Shown here piece after piece: positions 24,219 to 46,725 of a stretch of DNA of 64,000 nucleotides. The position numbers and the translations under genes were made by a program. Source of the DNA: Ostreococcus lucimarinus. Lineage: Eukaryota. Below the pieces are notes generated by a model. That model was given only the letters and a program-made list of their open reading frames with translations. It made no database searches and was not told the DNA's origin. Position 1 is the first letter of the stretch, and each line of letters opens with the position of its first letter. The DNA is taken from NCBI GenBank assembly GCA_000092065.1, contig CP000588.1. One strand, 5' to 3'.

Positions 24219-25291
24219 ATGGTGGACTCGAAGGTGCGACGACGACGACGACGCGAACGGGTGATTTCGATTTCGGGCGCGCGCGCCAACGGCTTTTTAA
24301 ACCGCGCGGCGAATCGGACGAATTGGACGCGGGAGGGGGCGATCGCGGGCGCGAGACTGACGAAAACGCGGCGAACGCGCGATAGAATGCGTTGCGGTTG
24401 ACGGATGAGAGCTCGCCGGAGCCGCCGAAACGGGCCATGACGGCGTATTTGATCTTTTGCAGCAAGCATCGCGAGCGAGTGATGCGGGAGGTGCACGGAG
24501 ACGACGGCGCGCGGAAGTTTTCGCGAGACGAAATGCAGTTAGTGACGACGCGGTTGGCGGAGATGTGGAATAACATTTCGGAGAAGGAGAAGAAGGAGGT
24601 GCAGGCGAAGGCGGCCGCGGCGAAGGCGGAGTATGAGATGCAGAAGGCTGCGTTTTCGCCGGCGTTGCTGAAGAAGTTGCATCGGTTGAAGAGCAAACCG
24701 AAGGGAACGGTCGTCGTGGAGGCGCAGGGTGAAAAGCCCGTGCGCGCCAAAACGGCGTATTTGATCTTCTGTGGTAAGCATCGCGCGGCGGTGATGCGGA
24801 AGATTCATCCGGAACCAGAGGCCAAGTTTACGCGCGCTGAGATGCAGCAAGTCACCACGGAGTTGGCTGCGTTGTGGAATAACATCTCCCCGCAGGAGCT
24901 CGCCGAATGCAAGGCGGCGGCGGCGAAAGAGCTCGAGCGATACAAGCAGTTGAAAGCAGAATACCGCCCGCCGGTGTACGGGCCATCCAAGCGGAACAAA
25001 GGCAAGAGCGTGCCGGGCAAGCCCAAGCGCGCTCCCACCGCGTACCTCATCTTTGCCGAAGAGTTGCGCGCCAGAATCAGACAGGAGCGACCGCATTTGA
25101 AGCACGACGAAATCTCTCAAAAACTGTCTACGGCCTGGAAGGAGATCGACGAAGCCTCCAAGAGAATCTTCCAGCAAAAGGCGGACGCAATCAAGGCGGA
25201 TCTCATGCAAAACATGCCGAGTTCTGTGATGCTCACGGGCCTGGAACACTCCTTACCGGAGCCACACTACAATACGCACATGTACCCCTAA
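24219..25291 (+). CDS. 3xHMG-box chromatin protein; model join(24219..24233,24386..25291) with an inferred 152-nt intron
   Basis: Three HMG boxes: PPKRAMTAYLIFCSKHRERV...; KPVRAKTAYLIFCGKHRAAV...; KPKRAPTAYLIFAEELRARI.... The track start at 24392 is TTG. An in-frame TAG lies at 24383-24385, and the first in-frame ATG (24437) would cut into box 1, so an upstream exon is required. The candidate is ATG 24219 (MVDSK) with GTGCGA donor at 24234, ACTGAC at 24356-24361 and AG at 24384-24385. The HMG call is firm; exon 1 is inference. Confidence 0.7.
24234..24385 (+). other. Inferred spliceosomal intron of the 3xHMG-box gene (GT..AG, phase 0)
   Basis: Donor aag|gtgcga at 24234. Branch-like ACTGAC lies 23 nt before the first downstream AG (24384-24385). 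The RPS29 intron in this window has the same ACTGAC-to-AG geometry. Confidence 0.4.
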
Positions 25292-35671: not shown

Positions 35672-35725
35672 GGTCGGTCGGTCGGTCGGTCGGTCGAGCG
35701 GTCGAGCGGTCGAGCGGTCGAGCGG
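35672..35725. repeat. Compound microsatellite (GGTC)x6 followed by (GGTCGAGC)x4
   Basis: Read directly: tggtcggtcggtcggtcggtcggtcgagcggtcgagcggtcgagcggtcgagcggg. It lies in the 269-bp spacer between the PLD6-like start and the Patched-like stop. Confidence 0.9.
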
Positions 35726-40375: not shown

Positions 40376-40432
40376 GAATCATACGATTCATATTGTGATC
40401 GCCGCTGATCTGTCATGAAGTCTTCGTTTGTC

Positions 40433-40469
40433 CGAACTAAAACTCGACGCCGCGTCGGTTTTTAGTTCG
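40433..40469. repeat. 37-bp imperfect palindrome (dyad) in the CHI-like / RPS29 divergent promoter
   Basis: cgaactaaaactcgacgc-c-gcgtcggtttttagttcg. Sixteen of 18 arm positions are Watson-Crick complementary, with one T:G and one C:T position. The centre is at 40451. Confidence 0.8.
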
Positions 40470-40542
40470 ATGCGCGAGCTCGCGCGCCTCGACCGCCGCG
40501 TCCGCCTCTTCGCGACGCGCCGACCGACGCACGCACGCAACC

Positions 40543-41002
40543 ATGGGACACAACGATATCTGGGCCTCTCACCCGGCCAACTACGGCAAGGGTTCTCGAC
40601 GATGGTACGCGCGACGACGACGCGAACGCGACGCGCGCGATGGGACGACGACGCGATCGCGGGGCGAGACGACGACGACGGTCGCCGCGCGCGCGCGCGA
40701 TGCGACGGCGCGAGACGACGGCGAAGGGTGACTGGGTATTCGTGGCTTCGCGCGCGAGGACGATGATGCGCGGGAGGGCGATGCGTGGGACGTGGGACGG
40801 CGCGCGAAGAGAACCCTTGCCGACCCTAGGGCTTTGAGCCCGAGCGAGCGCGAGCGAGCGACTGACCGAGGTATTGTTTTACGATGAACGCAGCCGCGTG
40901 TGCGAAAACCAGTGGGCGATCATTCGCAAGTACGACTTGAACATCTGCCGTCAGTGCTTCCGGGAATACGCGAAGGACATCGGTTTCGTTAAGAACAACT
41001 AA
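40543..41002 (+). CDS. RPS29: Cytosolic ribosomal protein S29 (uS14), join(40543..40604,40894..41002), 56 aa
   Basis: Exon 1 encodes [20 protein letters not shown] plus 'tg'. Exon 2 adds 'c' and encodes ...[36 protein letters not shown], then TAA at 41000-41002. The spliced product is colinear with human RPS29 ([56 protein letters not shown]). The ORF track shows only exon 1 read through into the intron. Confidence 0.9.
40605..40893 (+). other. Spliceosomal intron of RPS29 (289 nt, GTACGC...CAG, phase 2)
   Basis: Donor tg|gtacgc at 40605 and acceptor gaacgcag| ending at 40893. Branch-like ACTGAC at 40861-40866. Only this splice restores the conserved GSRxCRVC zinc-knuckle frame. Confidence 0.85.
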
Positions 41003-41127
41003 TGTTCAAAGTGAAGACGACGCGCGCGGGTTGACGCGCCGATTAGCTAGCGGAGAGTAGACGAGGATCGTATGTGTTGTGAATGTCGATACGACCAGTT
41101 ACTTAATACAGTGTGCGAACCTACCTA

Positions 41128-44100
41128 TCAGCCGCTCAATTTTTTGCCGCTACGCGTATGACGGGGAGACGGGTCGCGCAAGAGTTTGCGTTGATCCTCT
41201 ACGTCGGACGCGAGTCTTTTTATCGCGTTTAATCGCTTGAGCTTTTTCGGCGGACCCATGACGACATCGTCTTCTCGCACTTTTTCGGCGGCTTCCCCTT
41301 CGCCGGCGGGCTCGTCGTCCTCGCTCGGCTCCGCCATTTCTTCGTCTGCGACGTCGGCGGGCTCGTCTTCTTCGCTCGCCGTCGGAGCAGGCAAACGTCG
41401 CGGCGGCGCGTCATCATCCGCGCGCATGAAACCGAAGTTATCCAGTGTTTCGTGGGTGCGCCTGACTTCTTCCATCGACTCTTCGTCGTCTACCAAGGCG
41501 CCCGTGCGCGAGAGGAGCGTGTCGACTAAAAAAGTTCCGCGATACAGACGCTCGAGACGCGAGCGATGACGCTCGGTGTACGCCCGACACGCTCTAGTGA
41601 TTTGAGAAATCTCCGGAACCTTGCTCAGTTCCTCCATGGTGTGTGTGCGGAAGATGGCGGCGAGAACGTGTTGCGCGACGTGGCACGTGCGTCCGTTTGT
41701 GTTCCACTCGCGCACGCACTTGAGCACTCGCGCGAGCTTGTCTTCGTGCAACGGCTCGACGCATTTCCGGAGTCTGGCGTCGCCATTTTCGTAGTCACTC
41801 TCCAGAAGTTTCGTCAAAACACGAAGAAGTGCACCAGGGCGCTCGAGTCTGAGCGCTAAATCGATCGCCTTCGTGACTTCGCCCGAGCGCTCGGCGTTGA
41901 AGAATGCTTGCTCGCGTTCGACGGCGAGGGCGTGCTTCTTCGCCGCATCGGCGGTGGTGCTCGACGTGGAGTCCTTCCACAGCGCCATGGACGCGTCGGT
42001 GCCCCCAGTGGCGATCCAATCGCCATCGCTTGCCACGGCCAGCGCCCAAGCTTTGTCTTCGTGCGCATCGATGGATGCGGCGCAAGACCCAGAGGTGACG
42101 TTCCATAAATTCAACAGCCCGTCGCCACCCGTGGTGACAAGCTGGGTACCTCGAGACATAAATTTAATGCTCAACACCGCTGCGGTATGACCTTCGAGCG
42201 TGCGCAAGCAAGCACCGTTGGTGTCGCTCCCAGCACGGTCATCGGCGCTCCAAATCTTCACCATCTTGTCGCCGCCCGCGGTGGCGAGTACGCGATCCGA
42301 AGGAGAAAACGCGCACGCCCAAACTCCACGACGATGGCCGCGTAGCGTGGCCAACGGAACTAAATCGGGCATTTTCCAAATCTTCGCCGTCTTATCGCTC
42401 GAACACGTGGCAACCATGCGGAGGTGCGGCGCAACGGCAACGCCGTTGAGGGACTTGTCGTGCGCCACTGTGGCCGCCGTAGCGTTCAATTCGCCGTCGC
42501 CATTTCGCCGAACTCCATCTATGTCCCATACGCGAAGCACGCGGTCGACGCCACCCGAAATGGCAAACGGTGCGCCATTTTTCGAGTTCGGGGGAAACGC
42601 TACCGCGGCAACTGCGCCGACATGGCCTTCGCCGACGGCGATGCACTCTCGCGTGGCGGCGTCCCACAGTCGTACCGTGTGATCCTTTGCGCCCGTCAAA
42701 ATGAGCGCTGTCCCGTCCGTCGTCATCGTGGCATCAACCGAGAGCACAACGGCGCTGTGACCGTTCAAAGATCCGACACATGACATCGTCGTCGGATCAA
42801 ACATACGTACCGTGGGCGAGTTGGTGACCACGGCTACTTCTCTCGGCGGTCTCGCGAGCGTTCGCTCGTCTTCATTCTCGTTCTCGTCGCTATCGCCATC
42901 GATGTTTCGCTTCTTTTGAAGTGCTTGCTCTTTCGCACCGGGTACGAACGCCAAACCGATCACTTCATCCGTATTCGCAACAATTTCGCGTTCAATCTCC
43001 AACGACGTCGTCTCTGCGTTGGCCTGGTACGTCAACAAACGCGCGTCGCCGCTCACGCCAATCAAACGGTTCCCATCGTGTGTGAGCGCACACTTCGTGA
43101 ACGTTCCCGCGGCGGCTTCAAAATCTTCGTCATTATCATCGCCTCCTTTGGTGAGCGTATTTACCGCTACGAGAGGTGCGGACTCGATCGAATGCTTCGC
43201 CGCGTTCTCGCGCCAAACTCGAACGCGTCCGCCGTCGCCGACGACGGCGAAAATGACTCCGCGCCCGCCCGGCGGCGGCTTCACCTTGCAGTCGCGAACG
43301 ATGGCTGAATCCGGACGTAAAATCACGCAATCCTCGATCGTTTCGTGAACCGCCGTCGTCGTTCGCGGATTGAGCGTGTCTAAATCAAACGTTCGAACTA
43401 TTTTGTCCCGCCCCGCGGTGAGCAACGTGTTCGATTCGACGTCGATTCGAATCGACGTCACCGCACTCACGTGCGCGTTCGCCACGAACGCGACGCAGCC
43501 ATCGGATGAGGCCTTCTTACCCTTCTTCCCGACGCCCGCCTCGCCCGTGAGCGACCACATCGCGAGCGACCCATCCTCCGCCGCGGTGAACGCTCTCGCC
43601 TCTCTAACGCTCGGATGAAACGCCGTCGCCGTCACCGCCCCTCCGTGCTTCCCGCGAAACGCGTGCGTGCAGTACCCTCGTTCGATGTCCCACACTCGCG
43701 CCGTTCGATCGGCGCTCCCCGTGCACAACAGCGTCCCCGTGACGTCCACGCACATGTCCAACACCGGCGACGTCTTGTGCGGCGACCACGCCTTCGTCCT
43801 CCGCATCGTCGTCCCCCCCCTCCCATCCTCCATCGCGTCCAACCGCACGACGCGTCCGCTCCGACTCGCGCAAAACACCTTCGTCCCGCTTCGATCCATC
43901 GCGATCGACGTCATCGCCTCCCCATCGCCCTCGTCCCGCGCGAGCGCCGTCGTCGTCGACGTCGTCGCCGCGTCGCCTCGCCGCGTCGTCGACCGCGTCA
44001 GCGACACCCCTCCCTCGCGCGTCGCGCACGCGTACACCACCTCATCCGCGCGCGTCTCCCGTCGCGCCGCGCGCGCCTTCGGCGCGCGCGTCTCGCGTCC

Positions 44101-44265
44101 GTCGCCGTCGCCGTCGTTCGTCCCGTCGCCGTCGCCGCCGCCGTCCCGCGCCGGCGTCGCGATCGCCATCGGCGCGCCGCGTCCGACGTAGAACGCGCCC
44201 AACCGCGAGGACGCCGCGACGGACGTCCGCGCGCGCGCTCGGCGCTCGCGAGACGTCGTCGCCAT
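41128..44265 (-). CDS. UTP13: WD40-repeat U3 snoRNP / SSU-processome protein UTP13 (TBL3)
   Basis: The track start at 44382 is GTG; the first ATG is at 44265 (MATTSRERR). About 12 WD repeats are present (e.g. GHRRGVWACAFSPSDRVLATAGGDKMVKIWS, LEGHTAAVLSIKFMSRGTQLVTTGGDGLLNLWN). A Utp13-type helical C-terminus follows (AIDLALRLERPGALLRVLTKLL ... ARVLKCVREWNTN). Confidence 0.8.
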   Translation of the reverse strand: MATTSRERRARARTSVAASSRLGAFYVGRGAPMAIATPARDGGGDGDGTNDGDGDGRETRAPKARAARRETRADEVVYACATREGGVSLTRSTTRRGDAATTSTTTALARDEGDGEAMTSIAMDRSGTKVFCASRSGRVVRLDAMEDGRGGTTMRRTKAWSPHKTSPVLDMCVDVTGTLLCTGSADRTARVWDIERGYCTHAFRGKHGGAVTATAFHPSVREARAFTAAEDGSLAMWSLTGEAGVGKKGKKASSDGCVAFVANAHVSAVTSIRIDVESNTLLTAGRDKIVRTFDLDTLNPRTTTAVHETIEDCVILRPDSAIVRDCKVKPPPGGRGVIFAVVGDGGRVRVWRENAAKHSIESAPLVAVNTLTKGGDDNDEDFEAAAGTFTKCALTHDGNRLIGVSGDARLLTYQANAETTSLEIEREIVANTDEVIGLAFVPGAKEQALQKKRNIDGDSDENENEDERTLARPPREVAVVTNSPTVRMFDPTTMSCVGSLNGHSAVVLSVDATMTTDGTALILTGAKDHTVRLWDAATRECIAVGEGHVGAVAAVAFPPNSKNGAPFAISGGVDRVLRVWDIDGVRRNGDGELNATAATVAHDKSLNGVAVAPHLRMVATCSSDKTAKIWKMPDLVPLATLRGHRRGVWACAFSPSDRVLATAGGDKMVKIWSADDRAGSDTNGACLRTLEGHTAAVLSIKFMSRGTQLVTTGGDGLLNLWNVTSGSCAASIDAHEDKAWALAVASDGDWIATGGTDASMALWKDSTSSTTADAAKKHALAVEREQAFFNAERSGEVTKAIDLALRLERPGALLRVLTKLLESDYENGDARLRKCVEPLHEDKLARVLKCVREWNTNGRTCHVAQHVLAAIFRTHTMEELSKVPEISQITRACRAYTERHRSRLERLYRGTFLVDTLLSRTGALVDDEESMEEVRRTHETLDNFGFMRADDDAPPRRLPAPTASEEDEPADVADEEMAEPSEDDEPAGEGEAAEKVREDDVVMGPPKKLKRLNAIKRLASDVEDQRKLLRDPSPRHTRSGKKLSG

Positions 44266-44341
44266 CGTCGCCGTCGCCGTCGTCGTCGTCGCGCTCTGCG
44301 TCGGACGCGCGGTCGTTCTCGCGTTTTCACGCGCGTTTTCG

Positions 44342-44650
44342 CGTTTTACTGGTGGCGTGTCACTCGTTTTATCGTACACCACGTCTCGTGATCACCATGA
44401 TTGAAACGGGACCCCGCGATCGATCGCTTACTGTTTGCGCACGCGGTCGGTACGCGGTCGGTACGCGGTCGGTCGCGCGTGTTCGCGCGCGCGTGCGTTT
44501 TACTGGTGGCGTGTCACTCGTTTGAATCGTACACCACGTCTCGTGATCACCATGATTGGAACGGGTCCCCGCGATCGATCGCTGACTGTTTGCGCACACG
44601 GTCGCGCACGCGGTCGGTCGGTCGGTCGTCGCGAGCCGATCCGCGAGAGA
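44342..44650. repeat. Tandem direct duplication, period ~154 bp, two copies (44342..44495 and 44496..~44650)
   Basis: A core of about 105 bp (cgttttactggtggcgtgtcactcgttt..atcgtacaccacgtctcgtgatcaccatgattg.aacggg.ccccgcgatcgatcgct.actgtttgcgcac) repeats with about 6 differences. Each copy ends in GGTCGG-type micro-repeats: (ACGCGGTCGGT)x3 at 44441-44473 and (CGGT)x4 at 44611-44626. Confidence 0.9.
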
Positions 44651-44799
44651 ATTCTTTGAATTAATTCGAATGGGAACGATTCGGCGTTCGATCGTCGACG
44701 CGCGCCGCACGGCGCGACGCGCGAGCGCACGGTGCGCTCTACCACGCGGTGCGAACGCCCGCGCGCGCGAACGACGGTTTACGCGACGGGACGCGCGCG

Positions 44800-46725
44800 A
44801 TGGCGGCGGTGATGCGGTGCGCGATGCCGACGCGCGATCGCGCGGGCGCGCGAACACGCGCGGGGATTCGCGCGCGACGCGACGGCGGCGCGGCGATGCG
44901 GGCGGCGCGCGTCGCGGGAGGGGCGCGAGGGGAGACAGCGCGCGCGATCGGGGCGCACGGCGCGATCGGGGCGATCGGGGGGGTGGGCGGGACGGCGGCG
45001 CGCGGGACGGCGCGAGGGGCGCGAGGGCGAGCGGCGAGCGACGCGGCGAGCGCGGGATCGTCGTATTGGAGCGAGGAGACGTCGAGGGAGACGGAAACGG
45101 TCGTGGAGACGACGACGGGGGGGGTGAAGGCGACGATGACGTTCGCGGCGACGGAGGAGGAGGAGGAGGACGAGGGCGCGGGCGCGGGGAAGCGAGCGCT
45201 CGGTTTGGCGGCGTTCGCCGCGGTCGTCGCGGCGTTTGCGTACAGCGATGTCAGCGCGAGCTTTCCGTTTTTAGCGCCGGCGCAGACGCTGGCGAGAGCG
45301 TTGGTCGATATGGTGGCGGCGGGGGTTGATTATTTCGTCGACGTTACGCTCGACGCGTACGACGCCGCCATTTTGGGATGCATCAACGTGTTCTCTTGGT
45401 TTCAATCGTTCCTGCTGACGCCGGGTGGAGTGATCGAGAACGGTGCGAAGGCGTCGTCGGCCGTCATGGCCGATCCGAGCACGTTCGTGTCCAAGGCGGT
45501 TGGCTTGTTGTGCGCCAAGCCGTTCATGTCAATCGCGGCGGTGTTGTTGACGCTGTCTCGAGTCGTCGCGTCGTGGACGTTTGCCGCGGCTGAGTACGCG
45601 TGCGCGCTTTTGTACGCTATGCCGGTTTACGTCTTCACGCCGACGGCGGTTTTGGCGTACTTGTACTTCAAGAAGCGGTCCATCGAAAAGGTTGAGATCG
45701 AGAAGGTGAAGTCGACCAGGAAGATGGCCAAGGCGAAAGCCAAAGCGGCGACCATCGTGTCCACTGGCTCCGCCACGGGAGCGAGTGCGAAGTGGGCCGA
45801 GCGCCTCGCCGCGGGAACGACGAGCCTTGAATCGTTCACGGCATCGGCGACGCGCTCGTCTGACGTGACTGTCATCGATTCGTCGAGCGACTTTTCGTAT
45901 TCGAGCTCGAGCTCGTACGCGAACGACGCCTCGTCCACGCCCATCGTGGCCACACCGGTCAACTACGATTCTTACTCTAGCAGCTCGTCGAGCGCGAGCG
46001 CGAGCGCGAGCTTGTCAGGTTTCACCGGTGTGTACGATTTCGAGGAATCGTATGCCAATCGCGAGGCGTTGATGGGTGGCTACAACATCGATCAGGCGGA
46101 AGTCGAGCGTCTCTACGCCGAGTTGATGCCGAAGGATGCCGGTATTCCGCTTCCGACCTTGACGGTGACTGAAAAGGTCGATGACACGGCTGAAACGAAG
46201 TTCATGGAACAGGCGAGCAGCGTGGCCACGGCGACGAAGGAGGAAGTGAAATCGACCTCGAGCGCGGCGGCGGCCAAGGCGGTGGACACGAAGACCGAAG
46301 CGGTAGTGAAGGCTGAGGTGAAGCCGACGCCGGTCACGCCGGTGAAGACATCTTCCTCGTCTTCGACGTCGACGACGACGACTTCGACGACTTCGACGTC
46401 GACGGCGAGCGCGAGCGGCACGAAGGAAGTGAAAAAGGGTGGTAGCAAGGAGGCGTTCCTGGGTTTCGTCGACAAGGTGAGCTCGATTAAACCAGAGGAC
46501 GTCACGAAGGTTGTGACGGAGACCGCGAAGGTCGTGACGTCTAAAGAGAGCTTGGATCTGGCGGCGAAACTGGCGAGTGAAGCCGCTAACAAGGTGCAGT
46601 CGTCGATCAAGAGCGTCGACGAAGACGCGGAATCCAAGTCGACGACGCTTCCAGGTGGTACGCGCAAAGTCTCGTCGCAAGACGACGACTTGAGCGAAGG
46701 TACGATGATCAAGAAGAAAAAGTAA
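44800..46725 (+). CDS. Hypothetical membrane protein: presequence-like N-terminus, hydrophobic core, long Ser/Thr/Ala-rich tail
   Basis: The track start at 44749 is GTG; the first ATG is at 44800. Hydrophobic helices include LGLAAFAAVVAAFAY, FMSIAAVLLTLSRVVASWTFAAAEYACALLY and MPVYVFTPTAVLAYLYF. The C-terminal half is low-complexity ([22 protein letters not shown]). I recognise no family. Confidence 0.5.
   Translation: MAAVMRCAMPTRDRAGARTRAGIRARRDGGAAMRAARVAGGARGETARAIGAHGAIGAIGGVGGTAARGTARGARGRAASDAASAGSSYWSEETSRETETVVETTTGGVKATMTFAATEEEEEDEGAGAGKRALGLAAFAAVVAAFAYSDVSASFPFLAPAQTLARALVDMVAAGVDYFVDVTLDAYDAAILGCINVFSWFQSFLLTPGGVIENGAKASSAVMADPSTFVSKAVGLLCAKPFMSIAAVLLTLSRVVASWTFAAAEYACALLYAMPVYVFTPTAVLAYLYFKKRSIEKVEIEKVKSTRKMAKAKAKAATIVSTGSATGASAKWAERLAAGTTSLESFTASATRSSDVTVIDSSSDFSYSSSSSYANDASSTPIVATPVNYDSYSSSSSSASASASLSGFTGVYDFEESYANREALMGGYNIDQAEVERLYAELMPKDAGIPLPTLTVTEKVDDTAETKFMEQASSVATATKEEVKSTSSAAAAKAVDTKTEAVVKAEVKPTPVTPVKTSSSSSTSTTTTSTTSTSTASASGTKEVKKGGSKEAFLGFVDKVSSIKPEDVTKVVTETAKVVTSKESLDLAAKLASEAANKVQSSIKSVDEDAESKSTTLPGGTRKVSSQDDDLSEGTMIKKKK

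Follow-up and report, generated by a model that had tools for sequence, protein, structure and literature searches.

The 64,000-nucleotide stretch of the Ostreococcus lucimarinus genome analysed here (assembly GCA_000092065.1, contig CP000588.1), hereafter the window, has a G+C content of 59.3% and carries long intronless open reading frames (ORFs). Two of these are transcribed divergently from a spacer of 534 bp. The minus strand holds the intronless coding sequence (CDS) of UTP13, a WD40 protein associated with the U3 small nucleolar ribonucleoprotein (snoRNP), which covers 41128-44265 and encodes 1045 amino acids, while on the plus strand an ORF at 44800-46725 encodes a membrane protein of 641 amino acids. 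Members of the UTP13 cluster carry the Joint Genome Institute (JGI) name “U3 small nucleolar RNA-associated protein 13”, and the cluster of orthologues at 70% identity includes Ostreococcus tauri proteins. A head-to-tail duplication of about 154 bp had been described in this spacer by an earlier inspection of the letters (the sequence-only reading), and both its location between the two genes and its existence were confirmed by Tandem Repeats Finder (TRF), pairwise alignment and self-BLAST.

TRF reported one array at 44308-44633, with a period of 155, 2.1 copies, 88% matches and a score of 508; the runner-up array of the whole window scored 112. The pairwise alignment of the two units gave 90% column identity across approximately 185 columns, and the self-BLAST of the repeat an E-value of 2e-56. 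Unit 1, proximal to UTP13, spans 44308-44462 (155 nt, by TRF and pairwise alignment), and unit 2, the one farther from UTP13 and nearer to the membrane-protein gene, spans 44463-44616 (154 nt, by alignment). Each encloses a core, a block of about 100 nt with a lower G+C content than its flanks, located at 44341-44441 and 44495-44596, respectively (~101-102 nt). The two-copy layout of the sequence-only reading therefore stands, with its starting points of 44342 and 44496 moved by 1 nt, and the distance of 77 nt that it gave between the start of the first copy and the UTP13 ATG (44265) was reproduced. The cores are five substitutions and one 1-nt indel apart, in agreement with the six or so differences counted before, and the longest exact runs common to both copies in the window measure only about 30 nt. 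By using two probes of 26-31 nt taken from the core, exactly two sites were found in the window at up to three mismatches, against none expected.

Both cores contain the two palindromes that had been pointed out, namely GTGATCAC at 44388-44395 (unit 1) and 44543-44550 (unit 2), and the 12-nt GCGATCGATCGC at 44416-44427 and 44571-44582. The former is polymorphic in wild alleles (GTGATCGC); the latter is unchanged across all units seen. An inverted repeat, GTGGTGT...ACGCCAC, is also held by the core. The borders of the units consist of short repeats, and the copies end in different ones, as claimed: the duplication junction is an (ACGCGGTCGGT)x3.5 array at 44441-44477, and the distal boundary (44609-44628) is formed by CGCGGTCG and then (CGGT)x4.5 at 44611-44628, both arrays being called by TRF. 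The same 8-mer, CGCGGTCG, which reads CGACCGCG on the UTP13 strand, marks the UTP13-side boundary of the duplicated segment at 44308-44315, so that its positions in the window are 44308, three in the junction (44442, 44453 and 44464) and 44609. Just beyond the core, at 44316-44347 and 50-80 nt upstream of the UTP13 ATG, three T4 tracts are found within CGCGTTTT-type repeats, in which TTTTCGCG resembles E2F/MCB-like sites. In the junction copy (44473-44497) the tracts have decayed, and they differ between alleles.

The state of this locus in natural populations was examined in three samples of metagenome contigs. The first comprised contigs encoding a UTP13 protein identical to that of the window, from seven marine metagenome assemblies, and every contig covering the unit presented a single one (L001-L004 and L007); where the full spacer was available (L001-L003), it measured 379-381 bp, in comparison with 534 bp in the window. 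For the second, a metagenome collection was scanned with an exact 21-mer that is invariant in all units, and the four contigs obtained all belong to this locus; L012 and L013 hold a duplication junction. The third consisted of ten contigs with a common variant of the UTP13 protein. Five of these are single-copy with spacers of 378-379 bp (L017, L018, L019, L021 and L025), three are duplicated with spacers of 531-534 bp (L020, L022 and L026), and two scaffolds (L023 and L024) have N-gaps precisely over the unit. Among the 15 resolved environmental alleles, 10 carry one unit and five carry two. Both kinds of allele coexist in nature, in a proportion of roughly 2:1, and the duplication is real, not confined to the reference and not fixed. 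Single-copy alleles have the unit at 43-200 nt upstream of the ATG of UTP13 and at some 200-300 nt from the ATG of the neighbour. The window copy that resembles this single copy is unit 2, and the private variants of unit 1 (TAAAACG, AGTAAGC and GGGGTCCC) recur in the environmental contig L015. The last 236 nt of this contig are 100% identical to 44206-44441 of the window and the preceding part is unrelated to it; L015 is probably a chimeric contig of low coverage.

An artefact in the reference assembly had been named beforehand as something that would undo the earlier reading, and it could be invoked for the fact that contigs end inside the unit (L005, L006 and L012-L015) or are gapped exactly over it (L023 and L024). 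However, resolved junctions are present in five independent environmental assemblies (L012, L013, L020, L022 and L026), and the copies are distinct enough to be told apart. With exact shared runs as short as those described above, assembly at k = 119-141 would have kept them separate. The breaks and gaps fit a mixed population of one-copy and two-copy alleles, which would be expected to produce them, and we give the artefact practically no weight.

The sequence around the single unit offers an explanation for its duplication. In single-copy alleles (L001-L004, L007 and others), a segment of about 150 nt has at each end the 8-nt direct repeat CGACCGCG, which is itself embedded in a GACC-type microsatellite when read on the UTP13 strand. 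The junctions of all five duplicated environmental alleles fall within this CGACCGCG motif. At least two junction types can be distinguished: one is shared by L013, L020, L022 and L026, to which that of the window is related through the signature ACGCGCGCG...AACACGCGCG, and a different one is seen in L012, where the ancestral flank is kept. In the window, the junction 11-mer has itself grown to 3.5 copies. The existence of two or more types implies that the duplication either recurred or was reshaped by exchange between copies. Taken together, these observations make it probable, to a degree that we consider high, that the repeat is a segregating microhomology-mediated tandem duplication (MTD), presumably near-neutral in effect, of a segment of approximately 150 nt from a bidirectional promoter.

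The ancestral state would be a single segment lying between two CGACCGCG 8-mers within unstable GACC/CGGT-type microsatellites. Replication slippage or unequal exchange between the 8-mers would then give a head-to-tail duplicate with one copy of the microhomology at the junction, and the duplicate could collapse back by the same route. Such an event would leave one copy at its native distance from each start codon and add about 154 bp between them, and it would double any factor-binding sites in the unit, for example the putative ones at GCGATCGATCGC and GTGATCAC, probably with nearly neutral consequences.

In Schizosaccharomyces pombe, MTDs arise at microhomologies of 5-8 bp and revert frequently (PMC8639346), and it has been proposed that, across life, tandem duplications arise predominantly in this way (bioRxiv 10.64898/2026.02.28.708716). 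The locus described here shares several features with them: a short identical sequence flanks the single-copy segment (8 nt here and 5-8 nt in the ssp1 alleles), the duplicate is head-to-tail with one microhomology copy at the junction, and both states coexist. The expanded microsatellite at the junction also corresponds to the proposed path from an MTD to a tandem repeat. On the other hand, the Ostreococcus segment is longer (~150 nt, as opposed to 55-92 nt in ssp1), it is intergenic, its copies are 6-12% diverged, and its formation and reversion are events that we infer from population alleles. The repeat is, in this respect, a further example of a known mechanism, in the promoter of a marine Ostreococcus.

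The gene order around the spacer, with an RsmB-F-type methyltransferase, the membrane protein, UTP13, a chalcone-isomerase-like protein and a Patched-like protein, is kept in four sister lineages, one of which (L010) carries P0004, a protein whose cluster includes O. tauri proteins. Upstream of UTP13, no similarity to the unit was detected by blastn in L009, L010 or L011, and L008 offers just 70 nt of upstream sequence. The short strings GTGGCGT/ACGCCAC and GAGTGAC are common to the sister upstream regions and the unit when these are compared by eye, and were judged too short to count. The upstream region of L009 (100-300) contains three TGACTCA sites, which are AP-1/GCN4-like, and one TGAGTC, and that of L011 (2860-2925) has its own, unrelated tandem duplicate of GACTGACTGACACCCGGGTGTTTT with a period of about 45 nt. 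To judge from this separate duplication, events of this kind seem to be common in these promoters.

The restriction of the core to one species, and a composition unlike that of its GC-rich flanks, are also what a mobile-element relic would present, for example a fragment of a miniature inverted-repeat transposable element (MITE) or of a solo long terminal repeat (LTR) that was inserted twice or duplicated after insertion. A dispersed element of this kind had likewise been put forward in advance as an outcome fatal to the regulatory reading. What was found is one locus: no further copy exists in the 64-kb window, and all exact 21-mer matches in the metagenome scan come from this spacer. No terminal inverted repeats bracket the unit. 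The direct repeat that flanks it is part of a microsatellite and is found once at the junction, which is the signature of an MTD and not of a target-site duplication. A mobile origin is accordingly considered very improbable. A scan of viral contigs with an 18-mer gave one match (L016), which was rejected as due to chance, with identity ending at 19 nt.

Another proposal of the sequence-only reading was a small unannotated RNA locus, in which each unit would be a non-coding RNA gene, either a small nucleolar RNA (snoRNA) or another transcript of RNA polymerase II or III, duplicated in tandem beside the gene of a U3 snoRNP protein. The arrangement does recall snoRNA gene clusters, with tandem intergenic units of ~100-150 nt next to a snoRNP-related gene, and the core is a discrete block of about 100 nt, less GC-rich than its surroundings and provided with an inverted repeat. 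The searches went in the opposite direction. Rfam at gathering thresholds gave no match in the whole window, relaxation to E <= 10 over 44250-44810 returned only sub-threshold chance matches to microRNA and small RNA models, and ARAGORN reported no transfer RNA (tRNA) or transfer-messenger RNA (tmRNA). In a regular-expression scan, the C box RUGAUGA was absent from both strands, and a single D box, CUGA, was present in one copy only and hence not conserved; no H/ACA arrangement was seen, and no credible 3' end had an ACA at a distance of 3 nt. The two cores, folded in either orientation, gave energies slightly worse than those of shuffled sequences (z from +0.41 to +1.18), and RNAalifold, applied to eight distinct units on both strands, found no compensatory changes among 22 and 35 predicted pairs. 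The variants break predicted pairs, and the covariation term of RNAalifold is a penalty. Unlike the units of C/D-box or H/ACA snoRNA clusters, those described here thus lack boxes, a stable or conserved structure, an Rfam match and conservation across species, and they are highly polymorphic with indels. The RNA gene is in consequence a very poor candidate, and we take the unit to be non-coding promoter DNA.

A coding role was rejected as well for the ORFs that cross the repeat, which are 44369-44857 (minus strand), 44401-44664 (plus strand), 44500-44745 (minus strand) and the GTG-initiated extension of UTP13, because the core has segregating 1-nt indels; moreover, the length of the unit is not divisible by 3. 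The peptide string TSDTPPVKR, which had been noticed in the GTG-initiated ORF 41128-44382 and again in ORF 44369-44857, is indeed present in both, which read through the two copies, and is spurious in each. The cores carry an ATG in good context in the orientation of UTP13, at 44396-44402 and 44551-44557 (CAATCATGG on the minus strand). From it, an upstream ORF of 17 codons would be opened, or of nine codons in unit 1. In L004, L012 and several distal copies this ATG reads ATC, so it is not conserved.

The repeat is located inside a hypervariable zone at 44170-45015, which also takes in what remains of the spacer and the GC-rich 5' ends of the two genes. In the UTP13 CDS, the comparison of eight sequences revealed four segregating sites in 3,138 nt, with a nucleotide diversity (pi) at 4-fold sites of 0.0018. 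When the differences of all contigs were mapped on the window by a BLAST-based procedure, 63 variable positions were counted in 44200-45000, the excess at 44400-44600 being due in part to the comparison of single copies with the two paralogues; the remaining 200-nt bins between 35000 and 50400 have 0-5 variable positions each. With single-copy alleles only (n = 8), 30 columns with single-nucleotide polymorphisms (SNPs) are found between -600 and +99 of the UTP13 ATG (~700 nt), and two in the other 2,300 nt. A second divergent spacer (40376-41127) has about four variable positions in the same contigs. The SNP peaks fall on the unit, on the microsatellites at its flanks and on an (GCGATCGGG)n minisatellite at approximately 44930-44960. 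In the core, about 10 of the 102 positions are variable, and the longest invariant run (21 nt) is no longer than chance would produce (P = 0.78), which gives no indication that particular sub-motifs are constrained. Among single-copy alleles, none of 55 site pairs violates the four-gamete test; once the copies of duplicated alleles are added, 64 of 561 do, a pattern compatible with exchange between copies.

SNP density is reportedly elevated near indels and repeats, and SNP clusters located, as here, at a segregating indel and at micro- and minisatellites conform to such local mutagenesis. The contrast with the adjacent coding DNA, about 50-fold, is nevertheless large, and mutation, exchange or selection could be the cause. 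For the duplication as understood here, the high local density would reflect repeat- or indel-associated mutagenesis, exchange between copies, or both, in an unconstrained promoter rich in microsatellites. The sequence-only reading had left two possibilities for the repeat, retention by selection or a recent origin. Retention finds no support in a unit that is not conserved in sister species, that is among the most polymorphic stretches of the locus and that is single-copy in two thirds of wild alleles, and a recent origin agrees with its restriction to one species and its continued segregation between one and two copies.

The unit is plausibly promoter DNA, as judged from its position, and may, as the sequence-only reading proposed, act as a cis-regulatory module for a ribosome-biogenesis gene, although not as one with deep conservation. 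An adaptive variant in cis-regulatory copy number was considered on this basis. According to this explanation, a unit with sites for dimeric factors (GCGATCGATCGC and GTGATCAC) tunes UTP13, its neighbour or both, and both alleles persist under balancing or spatially varying selection. The unit lies 77-300 nt from both start codons, and its 12-nt palindrome is preserved in every unit despite the hypervariable surroundings. The duplicated allele has an intermediate frequency (five of 15), was sampled at diverse sites and comes in several haplotypes, and the very high local diversity is of the kind seen around a balanced polymorphism. The hexamer CGATCG is mildly enriched in the spacers of the window (18 observed vs. 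10.9 +/- 3.1 expected, with four of 300 dinucleotide shuffles reaching 18). The other 8-mers of the core are rare or absent in the spacers of the 64-kb window, and a literature search on Ostreococcus promoter motifs and on CGATCG found nothing relevant. Against an adaptive variant, GCGATCGC occurs in the window at chance frequency (11 observed vs. 11.8 expected from dinucleotide shuffles). One of the two palindromes is itself polymorphic, the invariant runs and the lack of conservation in sister lineages have been described above, and the overlap of SNP clusters with micro- and minisatellites points to mutation and not to selection. We therefore regard an adaptive variant as unlikely.

In Aspergillus fumigatus, the TR34 and TR46 alleles of the cyp51A promoter are tandem repeats that change expression. 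The repeat upstream of UTP13 is similar to them in being a promoter segment duplicated head-to-tail, with a doubling of transcription-factor sites (putative in this case), that segregates within a species, and differs from them in its far longer unit. A more ambitious proposal can be framed by extension, in which the one/two-copy polymorphism would act as a selectively maintained expression dial for UTP13 and its divergent neighbour, expanding and collapsing reversibly by MTD at the CGACCGCG pair, with the ~50-fold SNP excess marking long-term balancing selection or a promoter-centred hotspot of recombination or mutation in a genome region that otherwise varies very little. It is offered as speculation, to which we attach a low probability.

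Several points weigh against a near-neutral MTD of recent date. The copies in the window are about 6% apart in the core, and more in the flanks, a difference much greater than the neutral diversity of the CDS; it follows that the duplication is old, or that it was born between alleles that had already diverged. A simple recent slip would account for this divergence only with the help of local hypermutation or exchange. That the change was a duplication and not a collapse is something that we infer, and near-neutrality is an assumption. A frequency of about one third across many sites could reflect balancing or local selection, and the palindrome could be a genuine promoter element in view of the mild enrichment of CGATCG in spacers. 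Finally, a scan with an exact 21-mer, which returned four contigs, leaves some room for diverged copies dispersed in the genome.

The window has few other repeats of this type, and the statement that the duplication is its only sizeable one is essentially right, with the qualification that two smaller direct repeats are also present. The first is a tandem duplication in a spacer at 459-558, with 47-nt copies at 459-505 and 512-558 that are 85% identical with a period of 53 nt; each copy starts with GTCGAA and ends with GTCGAAAACGGTG, and it may be another microhomology-type duplication. The second is a 65-nt direct repeat inside ORF 24437-25291, with copies at 24431-24495 and 24743-24807 that are 78% identical and 312 nt apart, and is probably an internal repeat of a protein domain. 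A (GGTC)n / (CGGTCGAG)n microsatellite at 35672-35725 is polymorphic in length in environmental contigs, with 12 indel positions and five SNPs in its 200-nt bin; GGTC-type arrays hence appear to be generally unstable in this genome, as they are at the borders of the unit.

Regarding the neighbouring genes, no Pfam family was found for the 641-residue ORF, and an exact look-up of the window version of this protein returned no record. Homology in sister species spans most of it, and its first ~70 codons are GC-rich and hypervariable. In this part (44800-45015, 77-86% G+C), the SNPs, counted by hand, fall mostly at codon positions 1 and 2, and the N-terminal stretch is either unconstrained or non-coding. 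The next in-frame ATG is located near 45137, and the tblastn alignments of sister species start from residue 7 (L011) or residue 67 (L010). On the other side of UTP13, the translation of 40871-41002 (plus strand) looks, by eye, like the C-terminal exon of ribosomal protein S29 (S14 family). A splice-acceptor-like ...acgcag precedes it, and the gene calls at the corresponding position in L005 and L011 give a weak match to PF00253. A small gene with an intron therefore seems to be present in the spacer that separates UTP13 from the chalcone-isomerase-like gene; its first exon was not located.

Taken alone, the duplication matters little, since it is one more MTD, a product of the mechanism to which most tandem duplications are now attributed. 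Its segregation explains the breaks and N-gaps that are seen at this point in metagenome assemblies of the species, and the length of the promoter (~379 vs. 531-534 bp) is usable as a segregating marker for Ostreococcus populations in metagenomes. The locus also offers a possible natural experiment, within a compact algal genome, on the copy number of a promoter segment, and a hotspot this sharp beside a near-invariant coding region may aid the study of repeat-associated mutagenesis or promoter-centred recombination in the Mamiellales.

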